Positions 1 through 31,270 of a DNA stretch of 64,000 nucleotides are shown here, piece after piece. Source of the DNA: Alphaproteobacteria bacterium (GTDB lineage: Bacteria; Pseudomonadota; Alphaproteobacteria; JAQWUY01); contig OZ246977.1 of NCBI GenBank assembly GCA_965232465.1, positions 144,684 through 208,683 on the forward strand, in the 5' to 3' direction. Every line of letters starts with the position of its first letter. Positions within the stretch are counted from its first letter, which is position 1. The notes below the pieces were generated by a model. That model worked only from the letters and a program-made list of their open reading frames with translations, searched no databases and had not been told where the DNA came from. Made by a program: the position numbers and the translations under genes.

Positions 1-3000
1 GATGTTACTGTTAACTGTTGCAATAGATCGTCGAAGGATACATCTGTACCAGCAGTCGATTGAGGTACTCTCATATCGGCAAAGGCTAAGTTATCCCCTG
101 TGGTTTGTTTGCCAATGGTAAATTCAAAGTCCTGTTTGCCCGTATATTTGGGGTCGCTGGCTTTGGCGGTGATGGTGGTGACCACCGTCCCGCCGGAGGT
201 TGCCCCGCTGATGTCGCCATTATTATCAATTTTTAATGTCCCAGTCGGCAGGTTGCCGGTTTTTCTTGCCACCGTCCAGTCGAATTGTAAACCGGTGGGG
301 GGGCTAGGATATTTTAGGTCAATCTTGGCACTGGAACTGGTTTTCCATTTGCCATCTTCATTTGTATCTGTTGTTACGGTGCTGCTGGTTAAGCGATCGA
401 CCCCTAGCTCTTGTTTACCCACCGTAAAGTTTTGATAAACCACCAATTTGGGGACGGATGAACTTAGGGCGTCACGGGTAATCTTGATTAACAATGTACC
501 CCCTTTGGTGAGTCTGCTTGCTACGATGTTCCCGGTGTTAGGGTTAATCGCCCCATTGCCTTGCACAATACCCGTCGTGGTCGATGTGAAACCGCCAACA
601 CGGGTACCAGAGGGCACAATTTCAAAGGTGTAATTGCCCCTTTGGCTTGTTGTGCCTTTGGTAAAGCCCAAGCTCGTATCCAGATAATAATTGGTGGTAT
701 AGGTCTGCCCGCTTTGGCCCCATTTTCCTGTGCCGGTGGGGATTTGTGTATACATACCGCCTTTTTGGGTAACCACTCGGAACAGGGCTTGTGCATCCAC
801 ATACTTTTTGCTTTCGAATGTAACGGTTACGGTTATGGGGGTGTTGATTTCCCCGGATATGGTCAGGCTCTTGCCGCCGCTATCGACGGCAAGATTTGTT
901 GTCCCCTGTGGTACGGATAGGCTTTTTATTTTCCAATCGTTCTTTTTGGTGGGGGCACCGGTGCGTGTGGACACTTTTGCCCATATATCGTTTTCGCTAA
1001 TGGGTACGGTGCTGACGGAGCCATCAAATATTTCCACAACATTTCCCACAGTCAGCCCAGAAACGATGGTTTGTTTTTTGATAACAAATTGCCCTAAGCC
1101 CAGTTCCCCTTTGTACTTGGCATTGCCCGCTTTCGCCTTCATTTTAAAGGTAACTGTACCGCCGGATACTGCCCCGGCTACGCCCGCCCCGGTAACCGCT
1201 AGCCCGCTGCTGATGGTATCGGGTTCTTTGCCGGATACTGCCGTCACTGTCCAGTCATAATCGGTAAAGGTGGTGCCACCGGGCAGATTGTAACGCAGCG
1301 GGATATTCCCGCCACTGCTACGCCATACCATATCCGCCCCACTTGCAACGGTTACAGTGGGGGCTGTGGTAAGGCTAGCAAGGGTTTGCTTATCGACGGT
1401 AATATTTTGATAATCTGTTAATGCGGGCAATGTGCCTGCTGGTACGGTTTTCGCCTTGCGGACAATTTTTACCAACAGCGTTCCACCCCGCAACAGATTG
1501 GTCCCTATAATCGCCCCAGTTTTGCTGTTTATGGGGCTGGTGGTAAACATATTTGCGGTGGTCGATGTATAGCCGGTAACAGCCGTACCGCTGGGCACAA
1601 CTGAGAAGGTGAAATCGTCATTGGAACCATCGGTTTTAAAGGTGGCGGTTACAGCCCCCACTGTATCCGATGCCTTTAATTTATAATCGGTGGCAGTAAA
1701 CGCCTTGCCCCATGTGCCCGATAATCCTGTGCGGGTCGATGGGTCATCGGTCATGGTACCCGCTGTTGTCGACAGGGTAAAGTCAAAGGTTACATTGTCA
1801 TATGCCGGATGTTCAAATACAGCCGTTACCGTGGCGGTGCTGATTGCCCCGGATACGGTCAGGGTCTTGCCATTAACGGCAAGCTTCGCATGGTCGGTTT
1901 TTTCCGTTAGGGTCTTTAATTTCCATTCGGACGCTTGCGTTTGTGCGTTTTGGGCACTGGAGCTGGATCCTTTCGCCACAGCCAATGCCCCTTCGATGGT
2001 GGTGGTGCTTACGGTTACAGTGCTGCTGCTGCTGGAATAAGGAACCTTTATCTGTGCTATGCTCAGTGTATCCGTTGTGGTTTGTTTGGTAATGGTAAAT
2101 GCCGCTAGGTCAAAACTACCCGTGTATTTTTCATCCGCAGATTTTGCACTCATGGTGATAACCACTGTACCAGCGGAGGTTGCCTTACTGATTTTACCAT
2201 CGGTGTCAATTTCTAACAAACCACTGGCGGTGGTGCTCTTGATACCCCAAGCAAATGCATTGGCATTTAACCCACCGGGCAAGTTGGTATATTTTAGGTC
2301 AAATTTGGTATCCCCCGTTTTCCACTTACTGTTCCCACTGTTTAACGATATAGTCGGTACGGTCGTTACATCTTTGCCCGCCCCTAGCTCCTGCTTCGTT
2401 ACCGTAATATTCAAATATTCTGTAACCGTGGCAGTCCCAGTTTTGGTACGGACGATTTTTACCAACAGCTTACCAGATTTTAACAGGTTCGTCCCGGTAA
2501 TCGCCCCACTTTTACTGTCTATGGGGTCGCTGGTAAATATACCTGCGGTGGTGGCACTAAGACCCGATGGGGCATCAGCGGGCATGGTACCGGCACCGAC
2601 AATCGAAAAGGCGTAATGTTGGGTGGGATCAAATGTGGTCCCCACATCAGAAGTCTGTAAATTATACTTCACATTAAACGCTTTGCCCCATTTGCCGGTG
2701 GTGCCGGTGGGGGTGGTGCTGAATAATTTCGGTGCCACTGTGGTCAATTTAACATCAACCAGCTTGTTTTTATACTTGTCGTTTTCGAATATAACTTTTA
2801 CAGTAGCGGGGGTGTTATCATCATCTGAGGGGATTGCCCCTGTTACACGCAGCACCTTGCCATTGCCAGAAACGGTAAGGTCACCATGCGTTGTGGCTAG
2901 GTTATTGACCTTCCAATCGGTTTTTTGCGTTTGTGCCGCACCACTGGCACCCGTAACGGATAAATTGTTTTCGAAGGCACTGTTGGCAACCGGTATGGAA

Positions 3001-6000
3001 CCGCTCAGATAGGGTATCTTAACTTCTGATACGCTTAGGGTATCCGTACTGGTTTGTTTATTGACGGTTACATCGACATTTTTAACAATTTCTTCAAATT
3101 TGGCATTGGTAGGATAGGTAATCTTCACTTTTACCACCCCCCCTTGTGCGGTTTTTGCAATGCGACCTGTGTTTGATTCCACTGTAATCGCACTAGCCCC
3201 GGAGGTCGGACCAGCGGTCGTACCCGATGGGTTCAATGTGTATCTGGCGGTGCTAATATTCCCGGGGCGGTTACTGATAGCATAGGAAACATTTTGCTCA
3301 TTTGCACTCCAGGTAATGGCACTATTAGCGAGTATTTTAAAGTTGGGGTAATCGTCGCTGTCGTGCTTGGTTACGGTAATATTTTCATAATCGGTTAATG
3401 CAGGCAATCCGCCTTTGGCGGCACGGACAATTTTTACCAACAAGGTGCCTGATTTGGTCAGTGCGGATCCGACAATTGCCCCGGTGTTGGCATTAATCGC
3501 CTGTGTATACGCATCGCTTTGCACAATACCGGCGGTGGTGGCGGTTTTGCCCCCTTTGTTCCCATCGCTGTTGGGTAAAATAGTAAAGGTGTAATCCCCC
3601 GCATTCGTTGTATCGCCTTTTGCAAAGGTATAGCTTGAACTCCCCACCGTATCAGTCAGTTTTAATTGGTAATCCGTCGCTGTGGTAAATCCTTTGCCCC
3701 ATTTGCCCGACAATCCCGAACGGGCGGTGCCTGTGCTCATCGTCCCTGTGTCTGTGGATACCTTAAAGGTTATCCCAGTTTTATCTTTGTATTTGGTGCT
3801 CTCTAGCACAGCGGTAACTGTGGTGGGCGTAGCGATTGCACCACTTATGGTTAAGGCACCATTTGCCGCAGCCAGTTTATCATGCGTTTCCGTTAGGCTC
3901 TTAATCGTCCAATCGTCTTTGGTGCTTATGCCACTTGCCACGGATATTTTATCCTCAATGTCGCTGCTGCTAATCGTTACGGTGCCACCACCATAGGGTT
4001 TGACAATGTCTGCTATGCTTAGGGTTCCGGTTTCCGTTTTCCTATCGACCGCCACATCGACATTTTTAACAATTTCTGCGTATTTATCATTTGCCGCATA
4101 GGTAACTTTTACTTTTACCACCCCACCCCGGCTGGTTTTTGCAATGTGCCCATTATTTTGTGTCACTGTAATCGCATCGTTCCCTGAGGTCGGACCAGCG
4201 GTGGTTCCCAATGCTGTCAAGGTGTATGTGGGGGTGCTAATCCCCGGCGGTGTATTCGCCGTTGCGTAGGTAACCGTTTGGCTGTTGGCGTTCCAGGTGA
4301 TACCAGAGGGGGTTACCGTAAAGCCTGAATGGTCAGCATCGGTTTGTTTATTCACCGTAATATTCACATAACCGGTCAATGCGGGCAATCCGCCCTTTGC
4401 TTTGCGGACAATTTTTACCAACAAGTCCCCTGATTTGATCAATTTGCTACCGGTAATTGCCCCCGTTTTGCCGTCGATGGCACCGCTAAACAGCCCACTC
4501 ACAATCCCCTGCGTGGTGGGTTTTAGGCCACTGGGTGCGGCGGAGGTGTGCGGTTCAATAGTAAAGGCGAAATCGTCCGTAGTTCCATCATCTTTAAATG
4601 TTACGGGACCTACATCGCCCACTGTATCAGATGTTTTTAAATCATAATCCACATTAAACGCTTTGCCCCATTTACCCGCCGTTCTGGTGGGGGTGCCAAG
4701 CAAGGTTCCCGATCCGGTTTTTAGGGTAAAGGTGGCGGTTTTATCCGCATATTTGGGGCTTTCGAAAGTGGCGGTTACCGTAACCGCTGAGGATATTGCC
4801 CCGCTGATTCGTATGGTGTTTTTGCCTTGTGCATCCGTAACAACGCTGGCATTTGCCCCCAACCCGCTTAGGCTCTTAATCGTCCAATCGGATTTTTGCG
4901 TTTGTGGATTCGTCGCAGCCTGAGCCTTCGCCACCGCAAATTTACCCCGAAGAGTAGCGTTGCTTACCACTTGGGCACCGGTTACATAGGGTATCACAAA
5001 ATTCCCCATGCTTAGGGTATCCGTTGCCGTTTGCTTGCCAATGACAAAGTCGGCTAAGTCGAATTGTCCCGTATATTTGGGGTCGCTGGCTTTTGCTTTC
5101 ACCGTAATAACCACCGTACCAGCGGAGGTTGCCCCGCTGATTTGCCCATCGGCTTGGTCAATTTTTACAGTACCACTGGGACCAGCATTTTGTTTATTCG
5201 CAACGGACCAAACGAATGTATTGACCGCTTGTCTGCCGGGCAGATCCGTATATCCAATATTAAACTTGGTGTCAGGATCACTTTTCCACTTTTTATCTTC
5301 TGTACCGCTGTCATCGCTTATTAGGGTGATGGTCGGCACCTTTTTTATATCCGCATTTGTACCGGTGCCAAACACTTGTTTATTTACCGTAATATTTTCA
5401 TATCCTATTAATTGGGGCACTGTGTCGGAGCCTACGGTTTTTGCGGCACGGACAATTTTTACCAACAGGGTACCACTTTTCAATAAGTTTGCACCCGTAA
5501 TCGCCCCAGTTTTGGTGTTTATGGGGCTGGTGGTAAATATATTTGCGGTGGTGGGTCTCAGACCACTGCCATCATTCCCCCCAGCTGCCACAATAGAAAA
5601 GGTGAAATCGCCACTGCTACCTGTGGTAAAGGTGGCGGTTACACCGCCCACTGTATCAGTGGTTTTTAAATCATAATCCACATTAAACGATTTGCCCCAT
5701 GTGCCCACCAATCCCGTGGGCGTGCCGCTAAGGGTGCCACCCGCTGTGGACATGGTAAAATTAACGGTCCTATCCGTATATTTACTGCTTTCAAATACAG
5801 CCGTAAGGGGGGTAGCGGTGGAGATTGCCTTTTTGATGGTCATACTCTTTTTATCCCCACTGATTTCCAATGTATCATCCGCAACAGCCCCCGTCCTTTT
5901 TGCTAGGCTTTTCAGGGTCCAATCAGATTGTGTCCCCAAACCATTTGGTACGCTTAATTTACCTTTTACATCGGTGCCTGTTACATCTTTAGTGCCAGTC

Positions 6001-9000
6001 CCAGAATAAGGTACAACAAGGGTTGCCATTGTTAAATCACCGCTTCCCGCTTGTTTATTCACCTTTACATCCACATTTCGGGTTATGCGTTCGTATTTAT
6101 CATTCGCCGCATAGAGAATTTCCACTTTTACCACCCCACTTTGGACGGTCTTGGCAATGGCACCTGTACTGTTAATTTGAATAGACCCCAGACCCCCCGA
6201 AGTACCAGCGGTTGTCCCCGCCCGTATCAGTGCATAGGAGGGGCTGCTAATACCCGTAGGTTTATTTTGGGATGTATAGGTAACCGTTTGACTTGCCGTT
6301 GCCCATGGTATCGCCGCCGCAGATACAGTAAACCCGGTGTGGTCGTTGCTATCCTGTTTGGTTACGGTGATATTTTCATACTCTATTAACTCCGGCAATC
6401 CGCCTTTGGCTTTACGGACAATTTTTACCAACAGGTCGCCCGATTTGGTCAGTGCCATCCCATTAATCACCCCATTTTTGGCATTAATAGCCGTTTTCGA
6501 TGTGTCAAGGATATTGCTGGTAGTAGCCTTCGCCGATGATGGTGCATCACTAGGCTTATTACCCGTAACAATCGTAAAGGTATAATCACTAGCGGTGCTT
6601 GCCGAACCTGTGGTAAATGTTACATTTTGTACATCCCCCACTGTATCAGACCCTTTTAATTTATAATCGACAGCAAAGGTTTTGCCCCATTTACCACTTA
6701 ATCCGTCACGGGTACCCGTACTCATCACACCCGCCCCGGTCGATAGTTTAAAATCAACGAATCTGGTGGCGTATTTTTCGCTTTCGAAGGTGGCGGTAAC
6801 TCGGGTACTGGTGGTGAAAGCCCCAGTTATGGTTAGGCTCTTATCATCATCAGCAAGGGTAATATTCGTATTCGCATCTTTTTTGCTGAGATCTGTTAAG
6901 GTCCACTCCGATTTTGCCCCTAAACCACCGGCACTGGGGACACCCAATTTCCCGGTGATGGTGGCGGTGCTTACGGGTTTGCTGGTATCCGCTGCCCCAA
7001 AGGGTATCACAAGGTCGCCCATAGTCAATGCCCCTGTGCCCGTTTGCTTATTAACGGGTACACTCACATCTCTGGTAATTTCTGCGTACTTATCGTTGGC
7101 GGGATAGGTAACCTTCACTTTTACCACCCCACTTTTGCTGGTATTGGCAATTTTACCATCCGAAGATACTGTAATAGCACCATTTCCTGAGGTTGTCCCC
7201 GCCGTTGTCCCCGATGCTATCAAGGCGTATGTGGGACTTGTGCTAATCCCCGCAGGTTTGCGGGCATTTTCTATGTAGGTAACTGTTTGGCTATTTGCGT
7301 TCCATCTAATCGTACCAGCGGATATACTAAACCTGGTATGGTCGCTACTATCCTGTTTGCTCACCGTAAAGTTTTGATATTCCGTTACCTTCTTTACACT
7401 ACCTTTTGCTTTGCGGTCAATTTTTACCAACAAGGTTCCTGATTTGGTCAGCTTCGTTCCATCAATCACGCCTGTGCTGGCGGTAATCGGATTGCTGCTA
7501 AATATATTTGGGGTGGTCGATGTGTACCCTGCTACATTTGTACCAGATGCCACAATCGAGAAGGTGAAATCGCTATCAGATATTTTAAATGTTTGCCCCC
7601 CAACAGGAGATTTTATATTATAATTTGTGGTATATGTTTTACCCCACTTACCTGACCCCGTGCGAGGTCCCTTACTTATCTTCGACCGTTCCGTCGACAG
7701 TCCGAAGGTTGCAGTCTTATTTTCATACGCAGGGTGTGACAATGTGGCGGTAACCGTTGTTTTGGTTGTAATCTCATCGGATATGGTTAGGGTTTTGCCA
7801 CTATCCGTTACAGCAAGATCGCCATTGTTATCCGTATCGGCAACGCTTACCAGTGTCCACTCAGATTTTTGTGTTTGTGCCGTACCTGTACTGGATACAG
7901 ACAATTGCCCCAGTATCTCAGCGGTGGTAACCTTTCTATCCCCATCCGCAGACACATAGGATATGACAAGATCCGCCATGCTCAGGGTATCCGTCGTCGT
8001 TTGCTTGGCAATGGTAAATGCCGCTAGGTCAAAACTGCCAACATATTTATCGTTGTTGCTAGCCGATGCGGTCATGGTAATAACCACCGTACCAGCGGAG
8101 GTTGCCCCATTGATTTTACCAACCGCATCAATGGCTAACAGACCACTGGCGGTGGTGCTTTTTATACCCCAGCCAAACGCACTGGCACTTAACCCACCGG
8201 GTAAATTGGTATATTTTAGGTCAAATTTGGTATTGCCGGTTTTCCACTTATTGTCGCCACTGTTTAACCGTATGGTCGGGATGGTCGTTACATCCGTACC
8301 CAGTACTTGCCTGTCCACCGTGATATTTTCATAATCGGTTAGTGCAGGCAATCCGCCTTTGGCTTTACGGACGATTTTTACCAACACTTTACCTGATTTG
8401 TTCAGTTTGCTGCCATCAATCGCCCCGGTGTTAGCGTTAATCGCCCCAGTTAAGGTACCGGTAACAATGCCCGAAGTGGTGGCGTCTTTGCCCCCCTTAC
8501 CCCCATCACTGGTAGGGACAATCGTAAAGGTATAATCGCCCGGCGTCGAGGTTGTGCCTTTTGTAAAGGTTACAGTTGTATCGCCCACTGTATCAGACAG
8601 TTTTAACTTATAATCCGCCGCTGTGGTAAACCCTACACCCCATTTACCCCTTAATCCCGACCGGGTGGCGCTTGTATCAGTCATTTCCCCCGCCCCAGTC
8701 GACAGTTCAAAGGTGGCGGTCTTATCGTCGTATTTATCACTCTCGAAGGTAGCGGTAACCGTGGTACTGGTGGTGATCGCCCCGGATATGGTCAAAGTTT
8801 TGCCACTATCGGTTACAGCAAGATTCGAATGACTATCCGTATCCGCTAGGCTTTTTAAGGTCCACTCCGATTTTGCCCCTAAACCACCGGCAGCCGGTAC
8901 ACCCAATTTCCCGGTGATGGTGGCGGTGGCTACCTTTTCACTACCCGACGCATACGGTATCACAAGGGCGTCCATAGTCAATGCACCCGTTCCCGCTTGC

Positions 9001-12000
9001 TTGGCAATGGCAAAATCCGCTAAGATAAACTGTCCGCTGTATTTGGGGTCGTTGGTTTTTGCCTTCATGGTAATAATCGCCGTACCCGCCGATGTTGCCC
9101 CACTGATTCTCCCATTTGTATCAATGTCTAGTGTCCCACTGGGTACATTCCCTGTTTTCCCCGCAACTATCCAATCAAATGTATTTGCCGCTTGGGTACC
9201 GGGCAGGTTGGCATAGGTCATTCTAAACTTGGTCGCCGTATTGCTTTTCCACTTGTTATTATCCCCCCCTGTTAACGATACCGTGGGGATGGTGGTTACA
9301 TGGGTTCCCAGCACCTGTTTACCAACGGTTAAGTTATAATGCTCTGTAACTGTTGTGGTGCCAGATTTGGCACGCACTATTTTTATCAGCAACACCCCCG
9401 ATCTGGTCAGCTTCGTTGCATCAATCGCCCCGGTGGCAGGGGTAATAGCGTTTTGTCCACTGGCAACAATCCCGTTGGTGGTCGATGTGAGCCCGGATAC
9501 GGTCGTCCCAGATGGCTCAATAGAAAAGGTGAAATCCCCCCCAGTGCCCGTTTTAAATGTCCCCCCCTTATCGTCTAAGTTATAGGTTGGGGTGTAGGTT
9601 TTCCCCCATACTCCCGTTCCTGTGGGGGTGGCGGTGGTAAGGTCTGATGCCCGTGTGGATAGTTCAAAGTCTTTGGATACATCGTTATATTTGCTGCTTT
9701 CAAATACAACGGTAATGGTGGTAGTCGCCGTGGTGATGCCCCCCGATATGGTCAGGCTCTTGCCCCCACTGGCAACGGCAACATTCGCATGGCTATCTGT
9801 ATCCGCTAGGCTTTTTACCGTCCAATCGCTTCTGGAGCTGCCGGTTGCTGTTAATTGACCCAGCACATCCGCCGCACTTACCGTTCTAGTACCCGATGTA
9901 TATGTTACAACAAGGTTGGCTACGCTTAGGGTACTTGCCGCTACCGTTTGTTTGGCAATGGCAAAATCCGCTGTACGAATCGACCCAGAGTACTTTTTAT
10001 TCGCTGCTTTTGCGGTTATGGTGATTTCCGCTGTACCGCTGGAGGCCGCCCCACTAATATGCCCATTGGTTTGGTCAATGACTAAGGTACCACTGGGGGC
10101 ATCCCCTGATTTTTTGCCTACTGCCCAACTATATTGCGATGCGGTTGTACCGCCCGGTAAGGTATAATTTAGGGCAATTTTGGCACTGGTACTCGACTTC
10201 CACTTGCCATCTTCACCGCTAGCTGTTGCCACCGCTGGACGGGTGGTTACATCCGTTCCCAACACTTGCTTAGCAATGGTAAAGTCCGCTGTGCGCATCG
10301 ACCCTGAGTATTTGGGGTTACCGGGGGTTGCGGTCATGGTGATTTCCACTGTACCGCCGGAAGTTGCCCCCCGAATATCCCCATTAACGATATTGAGTGT
10401 ACCACTGGGGGCGTCGCTTGATTTCTTAGCCACCGTCCAAGTATATTGCGTTGCCCTTGTCCCGCCCGGTAAGGTATAGTCTAGGTCAATCTTGGTAACG
10501 GTACTGTCCTTCCACTTGCCGCTTTCACTGGTTGCTTTTGCCACCGCTGGGGGGGTGGTTACATCGGTTCCCAGTACTTGCTTGGTTACATCAAAGTTCA
10601 CATAGTCTGTGGCTTCGGCAACTTTATTTGCCCCTGTGCCTTTTTCGTCACGGACAATCTGTATCAACAGCTTACCCGATTGGGTTAGCTTGCTGGTGTC
10701 AATAACCCCGGTTTCTTCGTTAATAGCCCCGGTTAATGCCCCTGTTACAATGCCCGCAGTGGTGGCATCCTTGCCCCCTTTGCCCCCATCACTAGCGGGG
10801 ACAATCACAAAGGTAAAATCGTTTGCTTTATCAAAATCTTGACCTTGGTCTCTGGTTTTTAACTTATAATCCGGGGTAACACTGCCCTTGCCCCATTTAC
10901 CCGTCAATCCGGTCGGGGTGCCATCAATCACCTGTGCGGGTCGTGTGGACAGTTCAAAGGTTTTGGTTACATCCGTATATTTGGTGCTTTCGAATACAAC
11001 CGTAATGGTTGTGCTTGTAGTGATTGCCCCCGATATGGTCAGGCTCTTGCCCCCACTAGCAGCGGCAACATTTGCATGGCCATCTGTATCCGTTAGGCTT
11101 TTTACCGTCCAATCGCTTCTGTTGCTGCCAGTTGTTGTTAATTGCCCCAAGACATCGGCGGCACTTACCGTCTTATTGCCGGATACATACGATACAACAA
11201 GGTTTGCTACGCTCAGGGTACCCGCCGATAGCGTTTGTTTATTAATCGTTACATCCACATCTCTGGTCATAGATGTATACTTATCATTCGCCGCATAGGT
11301 AATCCGCACTTTTACCACACCGCTTTTGTTGGTTTTGGCAATGGCACCCGTACTGCTTGCAATCGTTATGGCATTGCCCCCTGTGGTGGGACCAGCGGTA
11401 GTACCCGTCGCTGTCAATGTGTATGTGGCGGTACCAATCCCCGTCGGTAGATTCGTCGGTGTATAAGTTATCGCTCTGCTTGCCGTTGCCCATGGAATAG
11501 CCCCAGCCGATACGGTAAACCCGCTGTGGTCGCTACTCTCTTGCTTGTTCACCGTGATATTTTCATATACGGTTAGCTCGGGTAATCCGCCTTTGGCTGC
11601 ACGGACGATTTTTACCAACAGTTTCCCTGATTTATTTAGCTTGCTGCCATCAATCGCCCCGGTTTTGTCGTCAATCGCCCCGCTTAATGCCCCGGTTACA
11701 ATGCCCGCAGTGGTGGCGTCTTTGCCCCCTTGCCCCCCATCACCGCTGGGTACAATGGTAAAGGTGAAATCTGTACCCGTATCAAAGGATACGGTTACAT
11801 CCCCCACCGTGTCAGAAGATTTTAATTTATAATCCACATTGAAGGTTTTGCCCCATTTACCGCTTAACCCGGTGGGTGTATCCCCCAATGTGCCCTCACC
11901 TGTGGATAGCTCGAAGGTTTTGGTTTGGTCCGCATATTCAGAACCCGTATGCTCGAATACAGCGGTTACAGTTGTGCCTGAGGGGATTGCCCCGGATATG

Positions 12001-13799
12001 ACCAATGTTTTGCCATTGACTGTAAGGTTTCCGTGACTATCTGTATCGGCTAGGCTCTTAACTGTCCAGTCGGATTTTTGGGTTTGGCTGCCGGTGACAG
12101 ATAATTTACCTAGTATCTGTGCTGTGCTTACGGTTACATTGCCAGACGCATACGGCACAACAAGATTTGTCATCGTTAACGATCCGGTGAATGCAATGTC
12201 GGTCTTTACATAAACAATGCGGGGGTTAAAGTCCGTGGCACTGTATGTCAATTTGATAACCGCTGCACCCGCACCCGCCTTATCTTCCAGTGTACTGCTA
12301 TAGGTGGCACTGCCAATGGCAACATTTGTACTCCCATTCTTAAACTGGAAGTCCGTACCACTGGTACCAGAAACCCTTTCTGCTTTCACCGTCGGCGTTA
12401 CCCCGGTGGGCAGGGTACCAATAAAGGTACTCAGGTCATATGTTTTGGTATTGGTTAAGGTATACGCATTGGCTTCGCTGCTGCCATCGCCGCCCTTAAT
12501 ATCATTACTGGTTTTGTCCGAATCGGATAACACAGTACCGATTTGGCTAATGGCTATCGCTTTCACGAATACAACCCGATCCTCAAATCCATCGGCACTG
12601 TATGTAAGTTTTAAGGTGGCGGCTTTGCCCCCGGCTATATCTGTGAACTTACTATCTGCGGTAATTTCCGATAAACTTATAACACTCCCATCGCTAGCGT
12701 ACAGTTCATAGTCCGTGCCTTTTTCCCCATCGCCATCGACTTGTTCCACCTTTACCGTAACTTTATTCGCATCAATCACCCCACCGGTGGTTTTAAGCGT
12801 ATCGGGAATGTCGCCAACAAAGTCTGCCACATCGTATTGTTCACTGTTTTGTAAGGCGTATGCGGATTGCTCTGTCGTGCCATCCCCATCACTGATTTTA
12901 TTGGCCGTTTTTTCCGCAGCACTCAGGGTGCTACCAAGGGCGGGGGTGCTATCGACCTCTGCCGTTTTAATATCATAGTGCCTCTCGACCTTGTCATAGC
13001 GTTTTGCCCACGCATCGCCACTGATGTTTAACGGTTTTAATTGTTGTGCTAATGGGGTGTTAAACGACCATTTTAACCCGGTGAAAAGTTCCGTGTTTGC
13101 CTCCCCCGATCTGGGCTTGTCGTATTCCGCCCGCAAGGTTAAAATGCTATTGGGTCTAAATTCGGCAATCAATTTGTTCCCCTGATCCACTGTATCGCCA
13201 ACACCATCAAACCGATAGGTGTTTAAACCGATAGTTAGGGATTCGAGATTGGGAACATTTCCTGAGGCGGTTATATCAAACCCTTTCAGGACTTTTTGAT
13301 CCTGTATAACCGCATTGCCCAATGGGTTATAATAGTTAGCGGAAAAATCAAATACCCCGGTTTTTAATTCCAGCCCCAACGATAGCCGTCTGAATACTTG
13401 TTTGTTGCCAAGCCGCCAAAACTTATTTTCCCCATCCTTGGTATCGATAAACAGGTTTACCCCCACAAGTGCCGGGCTATTGAGAAGTTGTGTCAATCTT
13501 CGGGTACCCACCCCCAAGTTTAACGCATTCACCCCCCCTTTGCGGTGTATACTGGTTTGTAAATACTGCAACCGATTTTTATTTTCACCTAATACAGAAA
13601 AACCGGTTAAACCATATTCTAAGCGATTGCTTGTATGGCTAAACTGTCCTTCGACCCATTGGAAAATACCTTTTTTGTTTACTGTGTCAATCAACAAATT
13701 CCCTGTCGCACTTACAACCTTGTCCGTATCATTGGTAAACGCTGGCGTTATTGCCGACAACACAAGTAAACTGGCACCGGCTAAAAACATTTTTCTCAT
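1..13799 (-). CDS. Giant inverse autotransporter (type Ve, intimin/invasin-like) adhesin, >4,599 aa, 3' end outside the window
   Basis: ATG at 13799 with an AGAAGGAAAG RBS. Hand translation gives MRKMFLAGASLLVLSAITPAFTNDTDKVVSATGNLLID...LNLGVGTR...LVGVNLFID...RRLSLGLELKT...FSANYY...KRYDKVERHYDI, an intimin/invasin-like barrel. The ~30 antisense shadow ORFs from 100 to 13402 share one frame and no fragment is listed in the sense frame, consistent with one unbroken ORF; the frame is open at position 3. Thr/Gly/Ser/Lys-rich repeats follow. Confidence 0.92.
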   Translation of the reverse strand, partial: MRKMFLAGASLLVLSAITPAFTNDTDKVVSATGNLLIDTVNKKGIFQWVEGQFSHTSNRLEYGLTGFSVLGENKNRLQYLQTSIHRKGGVNALNLGVGTRRLTQLLNSPALVGVNLFIDTKDGENKFWRLGNKQVFRRLSLGLELKTGVFDFSANYYNPLGNAVIQDQKVLKGFDITASGNVPNLESLTIGLNTYRFDGVGDTVDQGNKLIAEFRPNSILTLRAEYDKPRSGEANTELFTGLKWSFNTPLAQQLKPLNISGDAWAKRYDKVERHYDIKTAEVDSTPALGSTLSAAEKTANKISDGDGTTEQSAYALQNSEQYDVADFVGDIPDTLKTTGGVIDANKVTVKVEQVDGDGEKGTDYELYASDGSVISLSEITADSKFTDIAGGKAATLKLTYSADGFEDRVVFVKAIAISQIGTVLSDSDKTSNDIKGGDGSSEANAYTLTNTKTYDLSTFIGTLPTGVTPTVKAERVSGTSGTDFQFKNGSTNVAIGSATYSSTLEDKAGAGAAVIKLTYSATDFNPRIVYVKTDIAFTGSLTMTNLVVPYASGNVTVSTAQILGKLSVTGSQTQKSDWTVKSLADTDSHGNLTVNGKTLVISGAIPSGTTVTAVFEHTGSEYADQTKTFELSTGEGTLGDTPTGLSGKWGKTFNVDYKLKSSDTVGDVTVSFDTGTDFTFTIVPSGDGGQGGKDATTAGIVTGALSGAIDDKTGAIDGSKLNKSGKLLVKIVRAAKGGLPELTVYENITVNKQESSDHSGFTVSAGAIPWATASRAITYTPTNLPTGIGTATYTLTATGTTAGPTTGGNAITIASSTGAIAKTNKSGVVKVRITYAANDKYTSMTRDVDVTINKQTLSAGTLSVANLVVSYVSGNKTVSAADVLGQLTTTGSNRSDWTVKSLTDTDGHANVAAASGGKSLTISGAITTSTTITVVFESTKYTDVTKTFELSTRPAQVIDGTPTGLTGKWGKGSVTPDYKLKTRDQGQDFDKANDFTFVIVPASDGGKGGKDATTAGIVTGALTGAINEETGVIDTSKLTQSGKLLIQIVRDEKGTGANKVAEATDYVNFDVTKQVLGTDVTTPPAVAKATSESGKWKDSTVTKIDLDYTLPGGTRATQYTWTVAKKSSDAPSGTLNIVNGDIRGATSGGTVEITMTATPGNPKYSGSMRTADFTIAKQVLGTDVTTRPAVATASGEDGKWKSSTSAKIALNYTLPGGTTASQYSWAVGKKSGDAPSGTLVIDQTNGHISGAASSGTAEITITAKAANKKYSGSIRTADFAIAKQTVAASTLSVANLVVTYTSGTRTVSAADVLGQLTATGSSRSDWTVKSLADTDSHANVAVASGGKSLTISGGITTATTTITVVFESSKYNDVSKDFELSTRASDLTTATPTGTGVWGKTYTPTYNLDDKGGTFKTGTGGDFTFSIEPSGTTVSGLTSTTNGIVASGQNAITPATGAIDATKLTRSGVLLIKIVRAKSGTTTVTEHYNLTVGKQVLGTHVTTIPTVSLTGGDNNKWKSNTATKFRMTYANLPGTQAANTFDWIVAGKTGNVPSGTLDIDTNGRISGATSAGTAIITMKAKTNDPKYSGQFILADFAIAKQAGTGALTMDALVIPYASGSEKVATATITGKLGVPAAGGLGAKSEWTLKSLADTDSHSNLAVTDSGKTLTISGAITTSTTVTATFESDKYDDKTATFELSTGAGEMTDTSATRSGLRGKWGVGFTTAADYKLKLSDTVGDTTVTFTKGTTSTPGDYTFTIVPTSDGGKGGKDATTSGIVTGTLTGAINANTGAIDGSKLNKSGKVLVKIVRKAKGGLPALTDYENITVDRQVLGTDVTTIPTIRLNSGDNKWKTGNTKFDLKYTNLPGGLSASAFGWGIKSTTASGLLAIDAVGKINGATSAGTVVITMTASASNNDKYVGSFDLAAFTIAKQTTTDTLSMADLVISYVSADGDRKVTTAEILGQLSVSSTGTAQTQKSEWTLVSVADTDNNGDLAVTDSGKTLTISDEITTKTTVTATLSHPAYENKTATFGLSTERSKISKGPRTGSGKWGKTYTTNYNIKSPVGGQTFKISDSDFTFSIVASGTNVAGYTSTTPNIFSSNPITASTGVIDGTKLTKSGTLLVKIDRKAKGSVKKVTEYQNFTVSKQDSSDHTRFSISAGTIRWNANSQTVTYIENARKPAGISTSPTYALIASGTTAGTTSGNGAITVSSDGKIANTSKSGVVKVKVTYPANDKYAEITRDVSVPVNKQTGTGALTMGDLVIPFGAADTSKPVSTATITGKLGVPSAGGLGAKSEWTLTDLSKKDANTNITLADDDKSLTITGAFTTSTRVTATFESEKYATRFVDFKLSTGAGVMSTGTRDGLSGKWGKTFAVDYKLKGSDTVGDVQNVTFTTGSASTASDYTFTIVTGNKPSDAPSSAKATTSNILDTSKTAINAKNGVINGMALTKSGDLLVKIVRKAKGGLPELIEYENITVTKQDSNDHTGFTVSAAAIPWATASQTVTYTSQNKPTGISSPSYALIRAGTTAGTSGGLGSIQINSTGAIAKTVQSGVVKVEILYAANDKYERITRNVDVKVNKQAGSGDLTMATLVVPYSGTGTKDVTGTDVKGKLSVPNGLGTQSDWTLKSLAKRTGAVADDTLEISGDKKSMTIKKAISTATPLTAVFESSKYTDRTVNFTMSTAGGTLSGTPTGLVGTWGKSFNVDYDLKTTDTVGGVTATFTTGSSGDFTFSIVAAGGNDGSGLRPTTANIFTTSPINTKTGAITGANLLKSGTLLVKIVRAAKTVGSDTVPQLIGYENITVNKQVFGTGTNADIKKVPTITLISDDSGTEDKKWKSDPDTKFNIGYTDLPGRQAVNTFVWSVANKQNAGPSGTVKIDQADGQISGATSAGTVVITVKAKASDPKYTGQFDLADFVIGKQTATDTLSMGNFVIPYVTGAQVVSNATLRGKFAVAKAQAATNPQTQKSDWTIKSLSGLGANASVVTDAQGKNTIRISGAISSAVTVTATFESPKYADKTATFTLKTGSGTLLGTPTRTAGKWGKAFNVDYDLKTSDTVGDVGPVTFKDDGTTDDFAFTIEPHTSAAPSGLKPTTQGIVSGLFSGAIDGKTGAITGSKLIKSGDLLVKIVRKAKGGLPALTGYVNITVNKQTDADHSGFTVTPSGITWNANSQTVTYATANTPPGISTPTYTLTALGTTAGPTSGNDAITVTQNNGHIAKTSRGGVVKVKVTYAANDKYAEIVKNVDVAVDRKTETGTLSIADIVKPYGGGTVTISSSDIEDKISVASGISTKDDWTIKSLTETHDKLAAANGALTISGAIATPTTVTAVLESTKYKDKTGITFKVSTDTGTMSTGTARSGLSGKWGKGFTTATDYQLKLTDTVGSSSYTFAKGDTTNAGDYTFTILPNSDGNKGGKTATTAGIVQSDAYTQAINANTGAIVGSALTKSGTLLVKIVRAAKGGLPALTDYENITVTKHDSDDYPNFKILANSAITWSANEQNVSYAISNRPGNISTARYTLNPSGTTAGPTSGASAITVESNTGRIAKTAQGGVVKVKITYPTNAKFEEIVKNVDVTVNKQTSTDTLSVSEVKIPYLSGSIPVANSAFENNLSVTGASGAAQTQKTDWKVNNLATTHGDLTVSGNGKVLRVTGAIPSDDDNTPATVKVIFENDKYKNKLVDVKLTTVAPKLFSTTPTGTTGKWGKAFNVKYNLQTSDVGTTFDPTQHYAFSIVGAGTMPADAPSGLSATTAGIFTSDPIDSKSGAITGTNLLKSGKLLVKIVRTKTGTATVTEYLNITVTKQELGAGKDVTTVPTISLNSGNSKWKTGDTKFDLKYTNLPGGLNANAFAWGIKSTTASGLLEIDTDGKISKATSAGTVVITMSAKSADEKYTGSFDLAAFTITKQTTTDTLSIAQIKVPYSSSSSTVTVSTTTIEGALAVAKGSSSSAQNAQTQASEWKLKTLTEKTDHAKLAVNGKTLTVSGAISTATVTAVFEHPAYDNVTFDFTLSTTAGTMTDDPSTRTGLSGTWGKAFTATDYKLKASDTVGAVTATFKTDGSNDDFTFSVVPSGTAVTGYTSTTANMFTTSPINSKTGAIIGTNLLRGGTLLVKIVRKAKTVPAGTLPALTDYQNITVDKQTLASLTTAPTVTVASGADMVWRSSGGNIPLRYNLPGGTTFTDYDWTVTAVSGKEPDTISSGLAVTGAGVAGAVSGGTVTFKMKAKAGNAKYKGELGLGQFVIKKQTIVSGLTVGNVVEIFDGSVSTVPISENDIWAKVSTRTGAPTKKNDWKIKSLSVPQGTTNLAVDSGGKSLTISGEINTPITVTVTFESKKYVDAQALFRVVTQKGGMYTQIPTGTGKWGQSGQTYTTNYYLDTSLGFTKGTTSQRGNYTFEIVPSGTRVGGFTSTTTGIVQGNGAINPNTGNIVASRLTKGGTLLIKITRDALSSSVPKLVVYQNFTVGKQELGVDRLTSSTVTTDTNEDGKWKTSSSAKIDLKYPSPPTGLQFDWTVARKTGNLPTGTLKIDNNGDISGATSGGTVVTTITAKASDPKYTGKQDFEFTIGKQTTGDNLAFADMRVPQSTAGTDVSFDDLLQQLTVT
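105..12190 (-). repeat. About 12 tri-modular super-repeats (~1 kb, ~330 aa each) in the adhesin passenger
   Basis: The G(K/T/V)WG(K/V/Q) motif recurs near 718, 1707, 2686, 3697, 4666, 5695, 6685, 7642, 8638, 9604, 10891 and 11851; modules are separated by (V/I)xKQ. Confidence 0.85.
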
Positions 13800-13892
13800 T
13801 TTTAATCTTTCCTTCTATCAATCTGTTAAAAATATTAATGTAAATCAAAATACTATGTTATAAAAAAACATAAACACATTCCTACATAAACG

Positions 13893-13954
13893 ATAATATA
13901 CAACCTTTACACAAAAATCAATAACAATTATTATTAATTTTTTTTTTTTTTTTT
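13893..13954 (-). promoter_or_regulatory. sigma70-like promoter of the giant adhesin with an upstream A17 tract
   Basis: Minus strand reads TTGATT-17 bp-TATTAT; a T17 run at 13938-13954 on + is A17 just upstream of the -35. Confidence 0.55.
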
Positions 13955-14157: not shown

Positions 14158-14376
14158 ATGGGCACATTTAGTATTTGGCACTGGGCCATTGTCGCACTCA
14201 TTGTGGTGGTGTTATTTGGCGGTGGGGGTAAATTGTCCCGTATTATGGGCGATTTTGGCAAGGGCTTAAAAGAATTTAAAAAGAATGTCAAAGAAGATAA
14301 TAAAGACAGTGTGGGCAAGGACAGCGTGCAGGAAAAGGACATTAGCAAATCCGACAACACATCCGATGAAAAGTAA
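14158..14376 (+). CDS. tatA: Twin-arginine translocase TatA
   Basis: MGTFSIWHWAIVALIVVVLFGGGGKLSRIMGDFGKGLKEFKK; start moved to the ATG at 14158; directly upstream of tatB/tatC. Confidence 0.95.
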   Translation: MGTFSIWHWAIVALIVVVLFGGGGKLSRIMGDFGKGLKEFKKNVKEDNKDSVGKDSVQEKDISKSDNTSDEK

Positions 14377-14379
14377 ATC

Positions 14380-14763
14380 ATGTTTGATTTGGGGTGGAGC
14401 GAATTTTTAATTGTGGCGGTGGTGACCATCGTCGTTGTGGGACCGCGCGAGCTGCCACGGGTTTTAAAGACCGTGTCATCGGCGGTGCGTACGGCCCGCA
14501 GGTACGCATCCGATTTTCAACGCTCTGTCATGGATGTGGCGGACCTGAACGATTTAAACGATATGCGTAAAACTTTGACCGCTGAACAGGAGGAAATCAA
14601 TAAAAACATGCGGGATGCCGCCATTGATATGGACGCCATGCGTCAAGAATGGGAAATGGATTGGGACGCAGAACTAGGCATCGATAAAACAGACCAAAAA
14701 CCTACGGCAAAAAAAGCGGTTGCGAAAAAAAGTCCAACAAATACCCAACAGAAAGACAGCTAA
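14380..14763 (+). CDS. tatB: Twin-arginine translocase TatB
   Basis: MFDLGWSEFLIVAVVTIVVVGPRELP signature. Confidence 0.95.
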   Translation: MFDLGWSEFLIVAVVTIVVVGPRELPRVLKTVSSAVRTARRYASDFQRSVMDVADLNDLNDMRKTLTAEQEEINKNMRDAAIDMDAMRQEWEMDWDAELGIDKTDQKPTAKKAVAKKSPTNTQQKDS

Positions 14764-14766
14764 GCT

Positions 14767-15555
14767 ATGGAGGAAAACCCCCCAGAACACAGCATACTCG
14801 AACATCTGTATGAATTACGCCGTCGTCTTTTATACAGTTTTGCGGCGTTGTTAATGGGATTTTTTGTCAGCTTTTATTTTGCCAATGATATTTTTAATTT
14901 TCTAACCCATCCGTTGTTAGAAGCATTTGGCGATACAGACAGCAGACGCCTTATATACACCGGCTTAGCAGAAAAGTTTTTTACCAATATTAAGTTGGCA
15001 TTTTTTGCCTCATTTATGGTGATGTTTCCCATATTGTTAATACAGGTATGGATGTTTATTGCCCCTGGATTGTACAAAAATGAACGCCGGGTATTTTTAC
15101 CCTTTTTATGGATGACCCCCCTATTATTTGGGCTTGGGGCGGCGTTTGTATATTACTTTGTGTTGCCCGTTGCGTGGCATTTTTTCCTGGGTTTTGAACA
15201 ATCTGGGACGGCAACTGTACTGGCGGTGGAATTGGAATCGAAAGTCGATGAATATTTATCGTTGGTGATGCAGTTAATTTTTGCGTTTGGGTTGGCGTTT
15301 GAATTGCCTGTGTTGTTGTTGTTATTGGTAAAAACGGGTATTATCGATACAGCATGGCTGCGTACAAAACGCCGATATGCCATATTGCTGGCGTTTGTTT
15401 TGGCGGCTATTTTGACACCCCCGGATCCTTTGTCGCAAATTGGTTTGGCAATTCCCTTGATTATTCTGTATGAGGCGTCTATTATACTATCATTGTTTTT
15501 GCAGAAACATACATCAGCGGACACAACCGATATAACAGTAAAAGATAAGGAATAA
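14767..15555 (+). CDS. tatC: Twin-arginine translocase TatC
   Basis: HLYELRRRL, FIAPGLYKNER, FGLAFELP and LTPPDPLSQ motifs. Confidence 0.97.
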   Translation: MEENPPEHSILEHLYELRRRLLYSFAALLMGFFVSFYFANDIFNFLTHPLLEAFGDTDSRRLIYTGLAEKFFTNIKLAFFASFMVMFPILLIQVWMFIAPGLYKNERRVFLPFLWMTPLLFGLGAAFVYYFVLPVAWHFFLGFEQSGTATVLAVELESKVDEYLSLVMQLIFAFGLAFELPVLLLLLVKTGIIDTAWLRTKRRYAILLAFVLAAILTPPDPLSQIGLAIPLIILYEASIILSLFLQKHTSADTTDITVKDKE

Positions 15556-26551: not shown

Positions 26552-29500
26552 TTAAGGGGTTACAAGGTATATAATATCTTCAAAGGCGTTGTATTTTTTA
26601 CCGCTATCTGCCCCTATTTGAATCTTTAACTTTATCACTTTTTTGTTGCCTTGACTTTGTACAAAGGTTATTTCACGACCATCTTGTAGGTCATTTTTTA
26701 GCTTTGTTTCCAATTCACTTTCAGTTCCTTTTAAGAACCTTGCACCATTAGAGATTTTTACATCTTCGGCGGTGCTTGTGCTTTCTGTGTTTAAAAAGGC
26801 TCTGGTTGCTGTTGAATCTATGGCGGTAACATCGCTTATATCAGTTTCAAAATTAACAGTTATGAGCCCCTGATTTTTTACAAGGGTCATTTGTGCTGAT
26901 GTTAAAGATGTAACCACCCCAAAATTATTAGTAGCGTCTAGGTCAATCCTTGCGGTTCCTGCATTATTTAAATGTTTTCCATTTAATGCCGCCGCAGGGG
27001 TAAGATATGAAGTGCGGAACGCCAACGGATAGTCTTGTTTACCGATGGCAAAGTCCGCCAGATTGACTTGTCCCGTATATTTTTTGTCGCTGGCTTTTGC
27101 TTTCATGGTAATGACAACAGTCCCACTTGATTCTGCCCCTTTTAGTTTCTTATCTGTAGTGTCCAGACTAAGGGTACCTGAGGGGGCATCGCCCGTTTTG
27201 CCCACCACAGACCAATCAAACGCCGCCACACTGCCCCCTGGCACATTGTTGTATGCCATACCGCTTAATTTTGCCCCACTGGCTTTCCATACACGGTCCG
27301 CTTGTGATGCGGTTATGCTGGGTTTGGTGGTAAGATCCGCAAGGTTTTGCTTGGCAATGGTAAAGTCCGCCAGATTCACTTGTCCCGTATATTTTTTATC
27401 GCTGGCTTTTGCTTTCATGGTAATGATAACAGTCCCACCTGATTCTGCCCCTTTTAGTTTCTTATCTGTAGTGTCCAGACTAAGGGTGCCTGAGGGGGTA
27501 TCGCCCGTTTTGCCCACCACAGACCAATCAAACGCCGCCACACTGCCCCCTGGCACATTGTTATATGCCATACCACTTAATTTTGCCCCACTGGCTTTCC
27601 ATACACGGTCCGCTTGTGATGCGGTTACGCTGGGTTTGGTGGTAAGATCCGCAAGGTTTTGCTTAGCAATGGTAAAGTCCGCTGTTTGTATGGACCCTGA
27701 GTATTTGGGGTTACTGGGGGTTGCGGTCATGGTGATTTCCACTGTACCGCCGGATTTTGCCCCCCGAATATCCCCATTAACGATATTTAATGTCCCATCG
27801 GGGGCGTCGCTTGATTTCTTAGCCACCGCCCAAGTATATTGGGTTGCCTTTGTGCCGCCCGGTAGGGTATAATTTAAGTCAATCTTGGTAACAGTACTGT
27901 CCTTCCATGCCCCATTTTCGCCCGTTGCTTTTGCCACCGCTGGGCGGGTGGTTACATCCGTTCCCAGTACTTGCTTGGCAACAGTAAAGTTGTAATATTC
28001 TGTGAGTTTTGGTGCTGTGTTTTTTGCTCTACGGATAATTTTTACCAATAGGGTACCGCCTCTGGTCAATTTATTGGCATTAATAACCCCTGTTGTGCTG
28101 TTAATAGCGTTTGCCCCTGTAATAATCCCTGTGGTGGTTGGTGTTAAGCCACTGCCATCGTCCCCACCTGTAATGATAGAGAATGTATAATCGCCCATCG
28201 CTGTTGAAAATGTTTGATTTAAATCAGACCCCTTTAAGTTATAATTGATGGCAAAGTTCTTACCCCACTTTCCTGACCCTGTGGGGGTGGTGGAAGTTAT
28301 TTGTCCCTGAGTTGTGGACAGTTCAAAGGTTTTGGTTACATCTGCGTATTTGGTGCTTTCGAATACAACGGTAATGGTGGTCGTCCCTGAGGTGATGCCC
28401 GCCCCCGATATGGTCAAGCTCTTGCCACTATCCGTTACAGCAACATTTGTATGATTATCTGTATCCGCTAGGCTCTGAACGCTCCAATCGCTTCTTGCAC
28501 TGCCAGTTGCTGTTAATTGCCCCAGTACATCGGTGGCGGTTACCTTTTTCGTACCCGATACAAAGGTTACCACAAGAGGGGCTACGCTTAGGGTATTTGC
28601 CGCTACCGTTTGTTTATTGACGGTTACATCCACATTTCGGGTAATCGTTTCATATTTATCATTCGCCGCATAGGTAATATTCACTTTTACCACCCCACCT
28701 CGGCTGGTTTTGGCAATCTTACCATCGCTCGACGCCACTGTGATAGCATTGCCCCCTGAGGTCGGACCAGCGGTCGTACCCGTCGTGGTCAAGGCGTATG
28801 TGGCATTGCCAATACCCGCAGGTTTGTTTGCTTCTGTATAGGATACCGTTTGGCTATTTGCGTTCCATGTAATAGCCCCCGCAGATACCGCAAACCCGGT
28901 GTGGTCGCTAGCCTGTTGTTTGCTCACTGTAAAGTTCTGGTATTCAGTTACCGCATCTACTCTCGATGCTCCTGTCCCTTTTGCCGCACGGACAATTTTT
29001 ATCAATAACGACCCCGATTTGGTCAGTTTGCTGGCAGTAATCGCCCCTGTTCTGATGTTAATTGCCCCTGTATAATCATTACCATCGATAATACCTGCGG
29101 TGGTGGGTGTCTTACCACTGCCATCATTGCCCCCAGATGCCACAATCGAGAAGGTATAATCTGAGGCTACAAAGTTTACGCTACCCACCGAAGTTCTTAA
29201 CTTATAATCTGTGGTGTATGTTTTACCCCATTTTCCTGAACCCGTACGCCCCCCTGTACTTATCTTCGACGGTTCTGTCGACAATTCAAATGTCACAGTC
29301 TTATTCGCATACGCAGGATGGGAAAATACGGCGGTTACAGTCGTCTTGGTGGTGATCTCATCGGATATGATCAGGGTTTTGCCCCCACTACCAACAGCAA
29401 GGTCGTCATTATTATCCGTATTGGCAACGCTTACCAATGTCCATTGGGATTTTTGCGTTTGTCCCCCTGATACAGATAATTGCCCCAATATCTCACTGGT

Positions 29501-31240: not shown

Positions 31241-31270
31241 ATTATACAGAGATTTTTTTTTTTTTTTCAA
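31241..31270 (-). promoter_or_regulatory. Adhesin 2 promoter with an A15 homopolymer in the -35/spacer
   Basis: Minus strand reads TTG-A15-TCTCTG-TATAAT, i.e. TTGAAA-18 bp-TATAAT. Confidence 0.75.

Follow-up and report, generated by a model that had tools for sequence, protein, structure and literature searches.

What is encoded by the very long minus-strand frame that leaves the left edge of the alphaproteobacterial DNA analysed here, and does it stand alone in its genome? The whole stretch analysed, called the window below, comprises 64,000 nucleotides (nt) of contig OZ246977.1 and corresponds to G000:C1:144684-208683 of a one-contig genome (2,630,883 bp, 41.6% guanine plus cytosine (GC)). 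We consider it highly probable that the gene encodes a type Ve surface fibre and that it is one of a lineage-specific family of about 30 fibrillar adhesins. When open reading frames (ORFs) with open ends were listed, the minus strand carried a frame of 4,599 codons at 3..13799, which starts with ATG and is open at its 3′ end at the window edge (coding sequence 1..13799 (-), residues 1-4599 of 5,149); its absence from the ordinary ORF track is probably due to the fact that it shows only when open-ended frames are requested. The frame was stop-free on translation, and reading on in the genome placed the stop codon 1,650 nt beyond the window edge. This gives a full gene of 5,149 amino acids (aa) at G000:C1:143033-158482 (-), with the last 550 codons and the stop lying to the left of the window (G000:C1:143033-144683). 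A reading of the letters alone (the sequence-only reading) had proposed an unbroken frame running off the window, and a check for internal stops over all 5,149 codons found none. A ribosome-binding site, GAAGGAAAG with an AAGGA core, can be read from the sequence about 8-10 nt 5′ of the ATG (13807..13815 (-)), and contigs from four runs, when aligned to the locus, were identical to the assembly over the 5′ end of the gene and its upstream region. In summary, the gene for the 5,149-residue protein is real and intact. A foreign origin was considered in view of its GC content (48.3% against 41.6% for the genome) and rejected, since a composition rich in Thr, Gly and Ala (GC at second codon positions, GC2, 0.51) accounts for the excess.

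The N-terminus of the protein starts with a probable Sec signal peptide (residues 1-22, 13734..13799 (-); MRK, a hydrophobic core and PAFT), which was recognised by eye, is modelled as a helix over residues 2-20 and is conserved in 23 aligned paralogues. It is followed by a short conserved segment (residues 23-47, NDTDKVV..ATGN..., 13659..13733 (-)), with a predicted local distance difference test score (pLDDT) below 50 in the AlphaFold2 model, and then by the predicted inverse-autotransporter β-barrel with its linker (12975..13658 (-)), in which 12 predicted strands in residues 48-245 precede the motif W.KRYDKVER.Y. The barrel assignment draws on Pfam, AlphaFold2, Foldseek and an alignment to invasin. 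The Pfam family IAT_beta (PF11924) matches residues 67-275 over profile positions 68-279 of 279, with 88.4 bits against a cut-off of 22.3 (E 8.2e-25), and a whole-genome scan with the same profile places the match of this gene at 157658-158284. In a pairwise search of PDB sequences, residues 74-277 align weakly (E 0.06) to the entire invasin barrel 4e1t. The AlphaFold2 model of residues 1-540, which rests on an alignment of 23 paralogues and has a mean pLDDT of 70.3, shows the N-terminal helix, a low-confidence stretch to residue 46, the 12 strands, a short helix, a strand and two modules that we call N. When this model was compared with the PDB by Foldseek, the invasin barrel 4e1t ranked first (E 9.2e-11, template modelling (TM) score 0.63 on the target) and the intimin barrels 4e1s and 5g26 followed, ranks 1-3 spanning E 9e-11 to 2e-9 and TM 0.60-0.63. 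In the candidate linker, which would occupy the pore of the barrel, the Pfam profile is matched to its last position and W.KRYDKVER.Y is invariant in 23 sequences; the helix at 250-253 and the strand at 264-274 are modelled at low confidence.

The order of the parts is inverted, with the barrel at the N-terminus, ending near residue 275, and some 4,870 residues of modules C-terminal to it. Sequence profile and model together support the assignment of the protein as an inverse autotransporter (type Ve) with an intimin/invasin-type barrel, as the sequence-only reading had suggested for the first 280 aa or so. That reading had also placed the signal peptide almost directly before the barrel, with no LysM visible. 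In the model, the first predicted strand follows the signal peptide after only about 25 residues, and in the 4,599 aa no LysM or other Pfam family besides IAT_beta was found at E ≤ 1. Residues 23-47 are the only candidate periplasmic part of this giant protein. A scan with NCBIfam gave nothing better than Stx B-subunit models (E 0.2-0.3, where the cut-offs are 175-201 bits), which were rejected as noise. The 25-residue segment before the barrel is almost invariant in 23 paralogues from two species, exceeding parts of the barrel in conservation, and it could be a motif for recognition or targeting in the periplasm.

Beyond the barrel, the passenger consists of about 44 modules, which we sorted into the types A, B, C1, C2, N, Cx and CT; those of types A, B, C1 and C2 measure about 95-125 aa. 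With type-specific hidden Markov models (HMMs), 97% of the protein is covered by the architecture BAR-N-N-(A-B-C)x13 with one extra C2, then Cx-CT. The two N modules next to the membrane (residues 286-418 and 419-534, 12198..12944 (-)) are β-rich and modelled at a pLDDT of about 90; iterated HMMs and models then place twelve A-B-C super-repeats, one of them with the extra C2, at residues 535-4565 (105..12197 (-)). The thirteenth super-repeat starts at 3..104 (-), and its remainder lies outside the window together with Cx and CT. Copies of the same type share 30-80% identity, and the HMMs of A, B, C1 and C2 pick up one another upon iteration, which indicates that these types are variants of one domain family. 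The protein has no Cys and is rich in Thr (15.8%), Gly and Ser.

We could not assign these modules to a named family, in agreement with the sequence-only reading, which had not recognised them as standard Big domains. No Big_1 or Big_2 (PF02369/PF02368) was found at E ≤ 1 on the 4,599 aa or at E ≤ 10 in seven single modules, and among 21 super-repeat sequences Big_1 appeared in one, below threshold (E 0.011). Pfam scans of the 4,599 aa and the single modules gave no Intimin_C, and neither the Pfam scans nor an ESM Atlas search recognised a lectin-type (C-type-lectin-like) tip. The best that single modules gave in Pfam were sub-threshold matches of C2 to PKD_6 (E 0.012) and of Cx to He_PIG (E 0.0046), while the 21 super-repeat sequences gave nine sub-threshold β-sandwich or unrelated families, each in one of the 21, with no consistent assignment. 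Against PDB sequences, the C-module profile had no matches and the B-module profile only matches at E ≥ 0.22. At the level of fold, an AlphaFold2 model of residues 4562-5149 (A-B-C1-Cx-CT, from a 21-row alignment) is all-β with a mean pLDDT of 81.1, and its best Foldseek matches are cadherin and protocadherin ectodomain arrays at E of about 1e-12, with the low TM scores expected of flexible arrays. A search independent of Foldseek (VIA) gave cadherin EC pairs, Rib and the cadherin-like modules of SraP at Z 6-7.5; the S-layer proteins SbsB, SbsC and Sap are also among the fold matches of the passenger. We conclude from the models that the modules are Ig/cadherin-like β-sandwiches, an assignment that holds at the level of fold only. 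Inverse autotransporters without predicted Big domains have already been noted by Heinz et al. (PMC4943183, in the legend to figure 7), and hence a passenger to which Pfam is blind is not a new kind.

This gene (IAT02) does not stand alone. A tblastn search with the barrel found 30 copies in the genome, and the Pfam profile IAT_beta gave 31 matches. The frames of the family range from 157 to 7,103 aa and sum to 238,848 nt, or 9.1% of the genome, a sum that is slightly too high because some starts were set too far upstream. All members share the grammar BAR-N-N-(A-B-C)n and vary both in length and in the order of their modules. Five internal copies of CT occur in the 7,103-aa member, so CT is not strictly a terminal tip. 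The closest paralogue is IAT22 (5,148 aa), with 92% identity over the first 250 residues and 57% overall. At the DNA level the target gene is at most 87% identical to any other copy; recent gene conversion among the paralogues was rejected on these best DNA matches, and the paralogues are old. A second family member lies within the window, namely IAT03 (26552..31186 (-)), of about 1,540 aa and with the order BAR-N-N-A-B-C1-A-B-C2-C2-C2. Two further loci touch on the limits of the family. IAT09 (G000:C1:937419-938357 (-)), the only clearly broken copy, has a TAA inside the barrel that leaves 157 aa of a frame that measures 2,453 aa on read-through. The 844-aa protein P0035 of the same genome matches the C-module profile (E 3e-30) and has no precomputed IAT_beta domain; on sequence grounds it may be a barrel-less or divergent-barrel relative.

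Outside this genome the family appears to be narrowly distributed. A full HMMER scan of one A-B-C2 unit against 1.84 billion representative proteins gave 24 at E ≤ 0.001; six of these were scanned with Pfam, and five carry IAT_beta, while the sixth, the weakest of the 24, has nine fn3 repeats. In a word-indexed search, the barrel query found ten relatives among proteins of 2,529-8,049 aa, eight from its own contig and two from contigs of 105-123 kb. The C-module profile had 12 matches among longer proteins (eight on its own contig and four on contigs of 11-34 kb), with no named domain family. The barrel's only relatives in genome_contigs are seven loci, at 55-57% identity, of one record named 'MAG: Alphaproteobacteria bacterium'; this record, and the fact that the kin of the genome fall in one class, uphold the alphaproteobacterial setting that had been read from the sequence. 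A scan of 31 related genomes with IAT_beta gave 14 matches in a genome of the same genus, where the frames measure 259-1,067 aa, two and one in a pair of small genomes of the same family, and a match in two of the 27 others in the class. In an even sample of 401 Alphaproteobacteria genomes, 34 had an IAT_beta match, and first-look candidate numbers were 32 in the genome studied here, 14 in its sister genome and at most five elsewhere. One genome of that latter group, G268 (1.9 Mb, from a different family), resembles the target locus in that IAT_beta heads giant open frames, here of 12,720, 9,595 and 10,334 aa (C1:873927-874676, 834424-834981 and 602046-602342), although it has at most five candidates against 32. 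Giant type Ve proteins are therefore not unique to this lineage within the class.

How such a protein might work can be proposed from characterised relatives. According to passages of PMC4943183 and PMC7697752, type Ve proteins are exported by Sec, insert a barrel in the outer membrane and secrete a passenger whose C-terminus is distal, and they have adhesive or biofilm roles. By analogy, the signal peptide would deliver the target protein to the periplasm, the 12-stranded N-terminal barrel would insert in the outer membrane, and the C-terminal passenger would be threaded out through or beside the barrel and remain attached to it. The passenger would then form a rod of about 44 β-sandwich modules, some 150-200 nm long if each module adds about 4 nm, with the Cx-CT end as the distal, ligand-facing tip, as in intimin and invasin. 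From this analogy we infer surface display, a rod shape and an adhesin role, with adhesion to a host or to another surface.

The likeness to invasin of Yersinia pseudotuberculosis and intimin of enterohaemorrhagic and enteropathogenic Escherichia coli lies in the probable signal peptide, the 12-stranded IAT_beta barrel and the C-terminal passenger of tandem Ig-like modules. These proteins differ in having four to five passenger modules rather than about 44, and the target protein has no Big_1, Big_2 or Intimin_C at threshold. Intimin (EaeA) further carries an N-terminal LysM and a C-terminal Intimin_C lectin domain, neither of which the Pfam scans found in the target protein. Invasin, like the target protein, is not known to carry a LysM. 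As described in parts of PMC6714894, YeeJ, FdeC and IatA-D of E. coli are likewise defined by PF11924, have repeat passengers of variable length and occur as several paralogues per genome; the same text counts seven inverse-autotransporter groups in E. coli, and six genes of 465-2,934 aa in strain SMS-3-5. In contrast, the genome here, at half the size, has about 30 genes that reach 7,103 aa and are built on a different module family. In the excerpted text of PMC7697752, BigA and BigB of Brucella are likewise surface adhesins from Alphaproteobacteria, and their Ig-like domains belong to the invasin/intimin family. They differ in that their BIg-like domains are recognisable, that the proteins are few in number and that their genes share a single island with a dedicated periplasmic factor, whereas the neighbourhood of the target gene shows no island of this kind.

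If the products of the family are surface fibres, the next question is how their expression is controlled, and here the upstream regions share a feature. In the target gene, an A17 homopolymer (T17 on the plus strand) lies 138 nt upstream of the ATG (13938..13954 (-)), just upstream of a -35-like hexamer. This hexamer belongs to a promoter-like site, TTGATT-17-TATTAT (13893..13921 (-)), which is a consensus match only and whose core is conserved upstream of IAT22. A second site found by the consensus scan, TTAAAA-18-AATAAT, takes in the A17 run; in all, the upstream region has seven promoter-like sites against 3.4 ± 2.2 in shuffled sequences. In the position upstream of the TTGATT core, the target gene has A17, IAT22 has T15 and IAT07 has A15. 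An invertible promoter, suggested by A17 in the one and T15 in the other, was rejected because the flanks of IAT02 and IAT22 align in the same orientation.

In the genome as a whole, 16 of the 27 A/T runs of at least 12 nt are sense poly-A lying no more than 300 nt upstream of a family member, and two more are the T15 runs upstream of IAT10 and IAT22. Most members of the family thus have a long A run inside or beside their promoter. Half of the paralogues (15/30) have what we call a class-I promoter, TTGAAA-[A9-15]-..CTG-TATA(A/C)T, in which the run makes up most of the spacer between -35 and -10. The spacer measures 18 nt in seven paralogues and 17 nt in four, and 12, 14, 15 and 19 nt in one each. 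The flanks are near-identical among paralogues while the run varies (A9, A10, A13, A14, A15). The promoter of IAT03 (31241..31270 (-)) is an example, with TTGAAA, an A15 spacer run (31253-31267) and TG-TATAAT. In the sister genome, all seven loci looked at have TTGACA-NNG-A13/14-(0-5 nt)-TATACT-like sequences 70-82 nt 5′ of the ATG, so that the homopolymer-bearing promoters of the family are conserved in two species. At five inverse-autotransporter loci of four other genomes (G002, G003, G008 and G013; the choice of ORF at L035 is doubtful), there was no such homopolymer upstream. At L033 (G002:C32), a locus of a small genome of the same family, a repeat of about 33 nt occurs in three tandem copies about 100 nt upstream of the start of the inverse-autotransporter gene. 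A search for the class-I motif in metagenome_contigs gave six loci, none of them with a barrel relative by tblastn, and these were set aside as chance matches in unrelated organisms.

The arrangement matches that of contingency promoters that vary by slipped-strand changes, and it recalls two described systems. In Mycoplasma hyorhinis, each vlp gene has a homopolymeric A tract in its promoter, and insertions or deletions in the tract switch transcription ON or OFF (Citti and Wise 1995, as related in part of PMC10502178). As far as that account goes, the Vlp system is the nearest described parallel, being a multigene family of size-variable repetitive surface proteins with an A-tract promoter per gene; it differs in that Vlps are small lipoproteins of a wall-less bacterium and not giant type Ve fibres anchored in the outer membrane of a diderm, and switching has been demonstrated for Vlp only. 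The T-tract 'rheostat' at the sabA promoter of Helicobacter pylori (PMC4081817) likewise has a homopolymer near the promoter of an adhesin gene, comparable to the A17/T15 run in the clade of the target gene, but it concerns a single gene and another protein class. By analogy, slipped-strand changes in run length would switch or tune each gene and so give rise to a variable repertoire of fibres. For the family as a whole we regard such switching or tuning as evenly poised between right and wrong; for the target gene itself we are somewhat more doubtful.

Several results weigh against the reading of the gene as a switchable type Ve adhesin. On the protein side, confidence in the modelled barrel is only moderate (pLDDT of about 50-72), the fold matches of the modules are middling, with no VIA match at Z ≥ 8, so that we speak only of an Ig/cadherin-like sandwich, and the CT module (the last 139 aa) has no recognised fold or relatives, as it lies outside the fold matches of the model and gives a best ESM Atlas score of 0.86 with no family. 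On the promoter side, the A17 run of the target gene lies upstream of the best-conserved -35-like hexamer and thus outside its spacer. Run lengths are rather uniform (A14 in nine of the 15 class-I promoters and A13 in six of the seven sister loci), which could reflect constraint rather than instability, and homopolymer lengths in assemblies are error-prone. Finally, no insertion or deletion was reported at the locus, a result that covers contigs only, from four runs, with both A tracts masked. In these four runs, all of one study, the contig that runs from 13776 on is gapless in X1 and X2 and has one gap, which is not placeable, in X3 and X4. One of the two runs with the one-letter gap shares its sample with a gapless run. 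Such a gap is compatible with a length difference of one base. One contig of each of the four runs also joins 13816 to 13841 and skips 24 nt of the 5′ leader (13817-13840); the shorter side of this junction measures only 41 letters, the contig may come from a paralogue, and the junction was not used.

The promoter results could also be read as a fixed architecture, in which the A runs are a rigid A-tract spacer, an UP-like element or an AT-rich target of a nucleoid-associated silencer, and the family is regulated conventionally. The uniform run lengths, the position of the run in the target gene and the lack of reported insertions or deletions in the aligned contigs, with the tracts masked, all fit this explanation, as do the 11 of 15 class-I spacers of 17-18 nt, which is near the σ70 optimum. 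On the other hand, runs of 12-17 identical bases are intrinsically prone to slippage. Moreover, near-identical flanks carry runs from A9 to A15 and spacers from 12 to 19 nt, which implies that run length has changed repeatedly, and the genome has an excess of G/C runs like that of genomes rich in contingency loci. A fixed architecture is thus a serious contender to which we give a little short of an even chance. As to the G/C runs themselves, 76 of at least 9 nt were counted, up to G25 (examples lie at 855258 and 931034 of G000:C1), where base composition would lead to an estimated 4 or so; none is inside an ORF of the family. One G-run site reads TTGACA-N6-G10-TATAAT and is another candidate slippage promoter, and contingency loci may be abundant in this genome as a whole.

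A different function for the fibres has also to be weighed. The family could form a protective, variable fibrillar coat, that is, a spacer or an S-layer-like brush against phages, predators or host defences, in which variation would serve evasion and not attachment. The share of the genome that it occupies (about 9%), the spread of lengths from 157 to 7,103 aa with shuffled module order, the Cys-free composition rich in Thr, Gly and Ser, the presence of SbsB, SbsC and Sap among the fold matches and the lack of a recognised lectin-type tip in the Pfam and ESM Atlas searches would all suit a coat. However, the type Ve proteins characterised in the relevant portions of PMC7697752 and PMC6714894 act in adhesion, invasion or biofilm formation, and the matches to S-layer folds do not surpass those to cadherins; we regard a coat as improbable. 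Lastly, it is extremely unlikely that the frame is a relic, whether decaying or unexpressed, or that the assembly produced it by collapsing or expanding repeats. The stop in IAT09 and an IS3-type transposase downstream of the target gene are outweighed by 15.4 kb of stop-free sequence that cannot arise by chance, by a ribosome-binding site and promoter-like sites, by contigs of four runs that match the 5′ end and upstream region without differences, and by the divergence of the repeats, whose protein identity is only 30-60% and whose DNA identity to any other copy does not exceed 87%, which makes repeat collapse unlikely.

The neighbourhood of the target gene is mixed. Upstream and divergent from it are tatC, serS, a gene for a LysM-M23 peptidase and secD; the nearest part (14158-15555 (+) of the window) holds a small ORF that is tatA-like by eye and remains a candidate, a 127-aa ORF with a weak, unrelated Pfam match, and tatC (E 4e-72). 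Downstream (L008:1347-4797; G000:C1 about 139346-142796) are a DUF6088/AbiEii toxin-antitoxin pair, the IS3-type transposase (HTH_Tnp_1 and rve) and a SocA/Panacea antitoxin-like gene. Among these neighbouring genes, no dedicated chaperone or receptor gene adjoins the target gene.

Most of what is known of type Ve proteins concerns single virulence adhesins of enterobacteria. What is new here is a type Ve export device with a family of passenger modules that is invisible to current domain libraries, so that annotation pipelines would label almost 4,900 residues of the target protein 'hypothetical', and the growth of this family to about 9% of a 2.6 Mb genome, coupled to homopolymer-containing promoters that are conserved in two species. 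The interest of the finding lies in how far the family has expanded, in modules that are private to it and in the architecture of its promoters, and both the A-B-C triplet and the CT module invite structure determination and the building of new Pfam families. If the promoters switch, Alphaproteobacteria would gain a new instance of a contingency-locus repertoire, and the family would offer a tractable system in which to study what use is made of fibre length and of diverse tips at the interface with a host or surface. The wider picture, which we put forward tentatively and lean slightly against, would be that of an uncultured alphaproteobacterial genus with combinatorial surface variation, in which some thirty giant type Ve fibres with private Ig/cadherin-like modules are expressed from poly-A-spaced promoters that slip between ON, OFF and intermediate states, so that each cell would carry a different mix of fibres that vary in length and tip. 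If true, this surface-variation system would be the diderm counterpart of the mycoplasma Vlp system, and it could allow a symbiont with a small genome to vary its attachment or to evade recognition by host, phage or predator.

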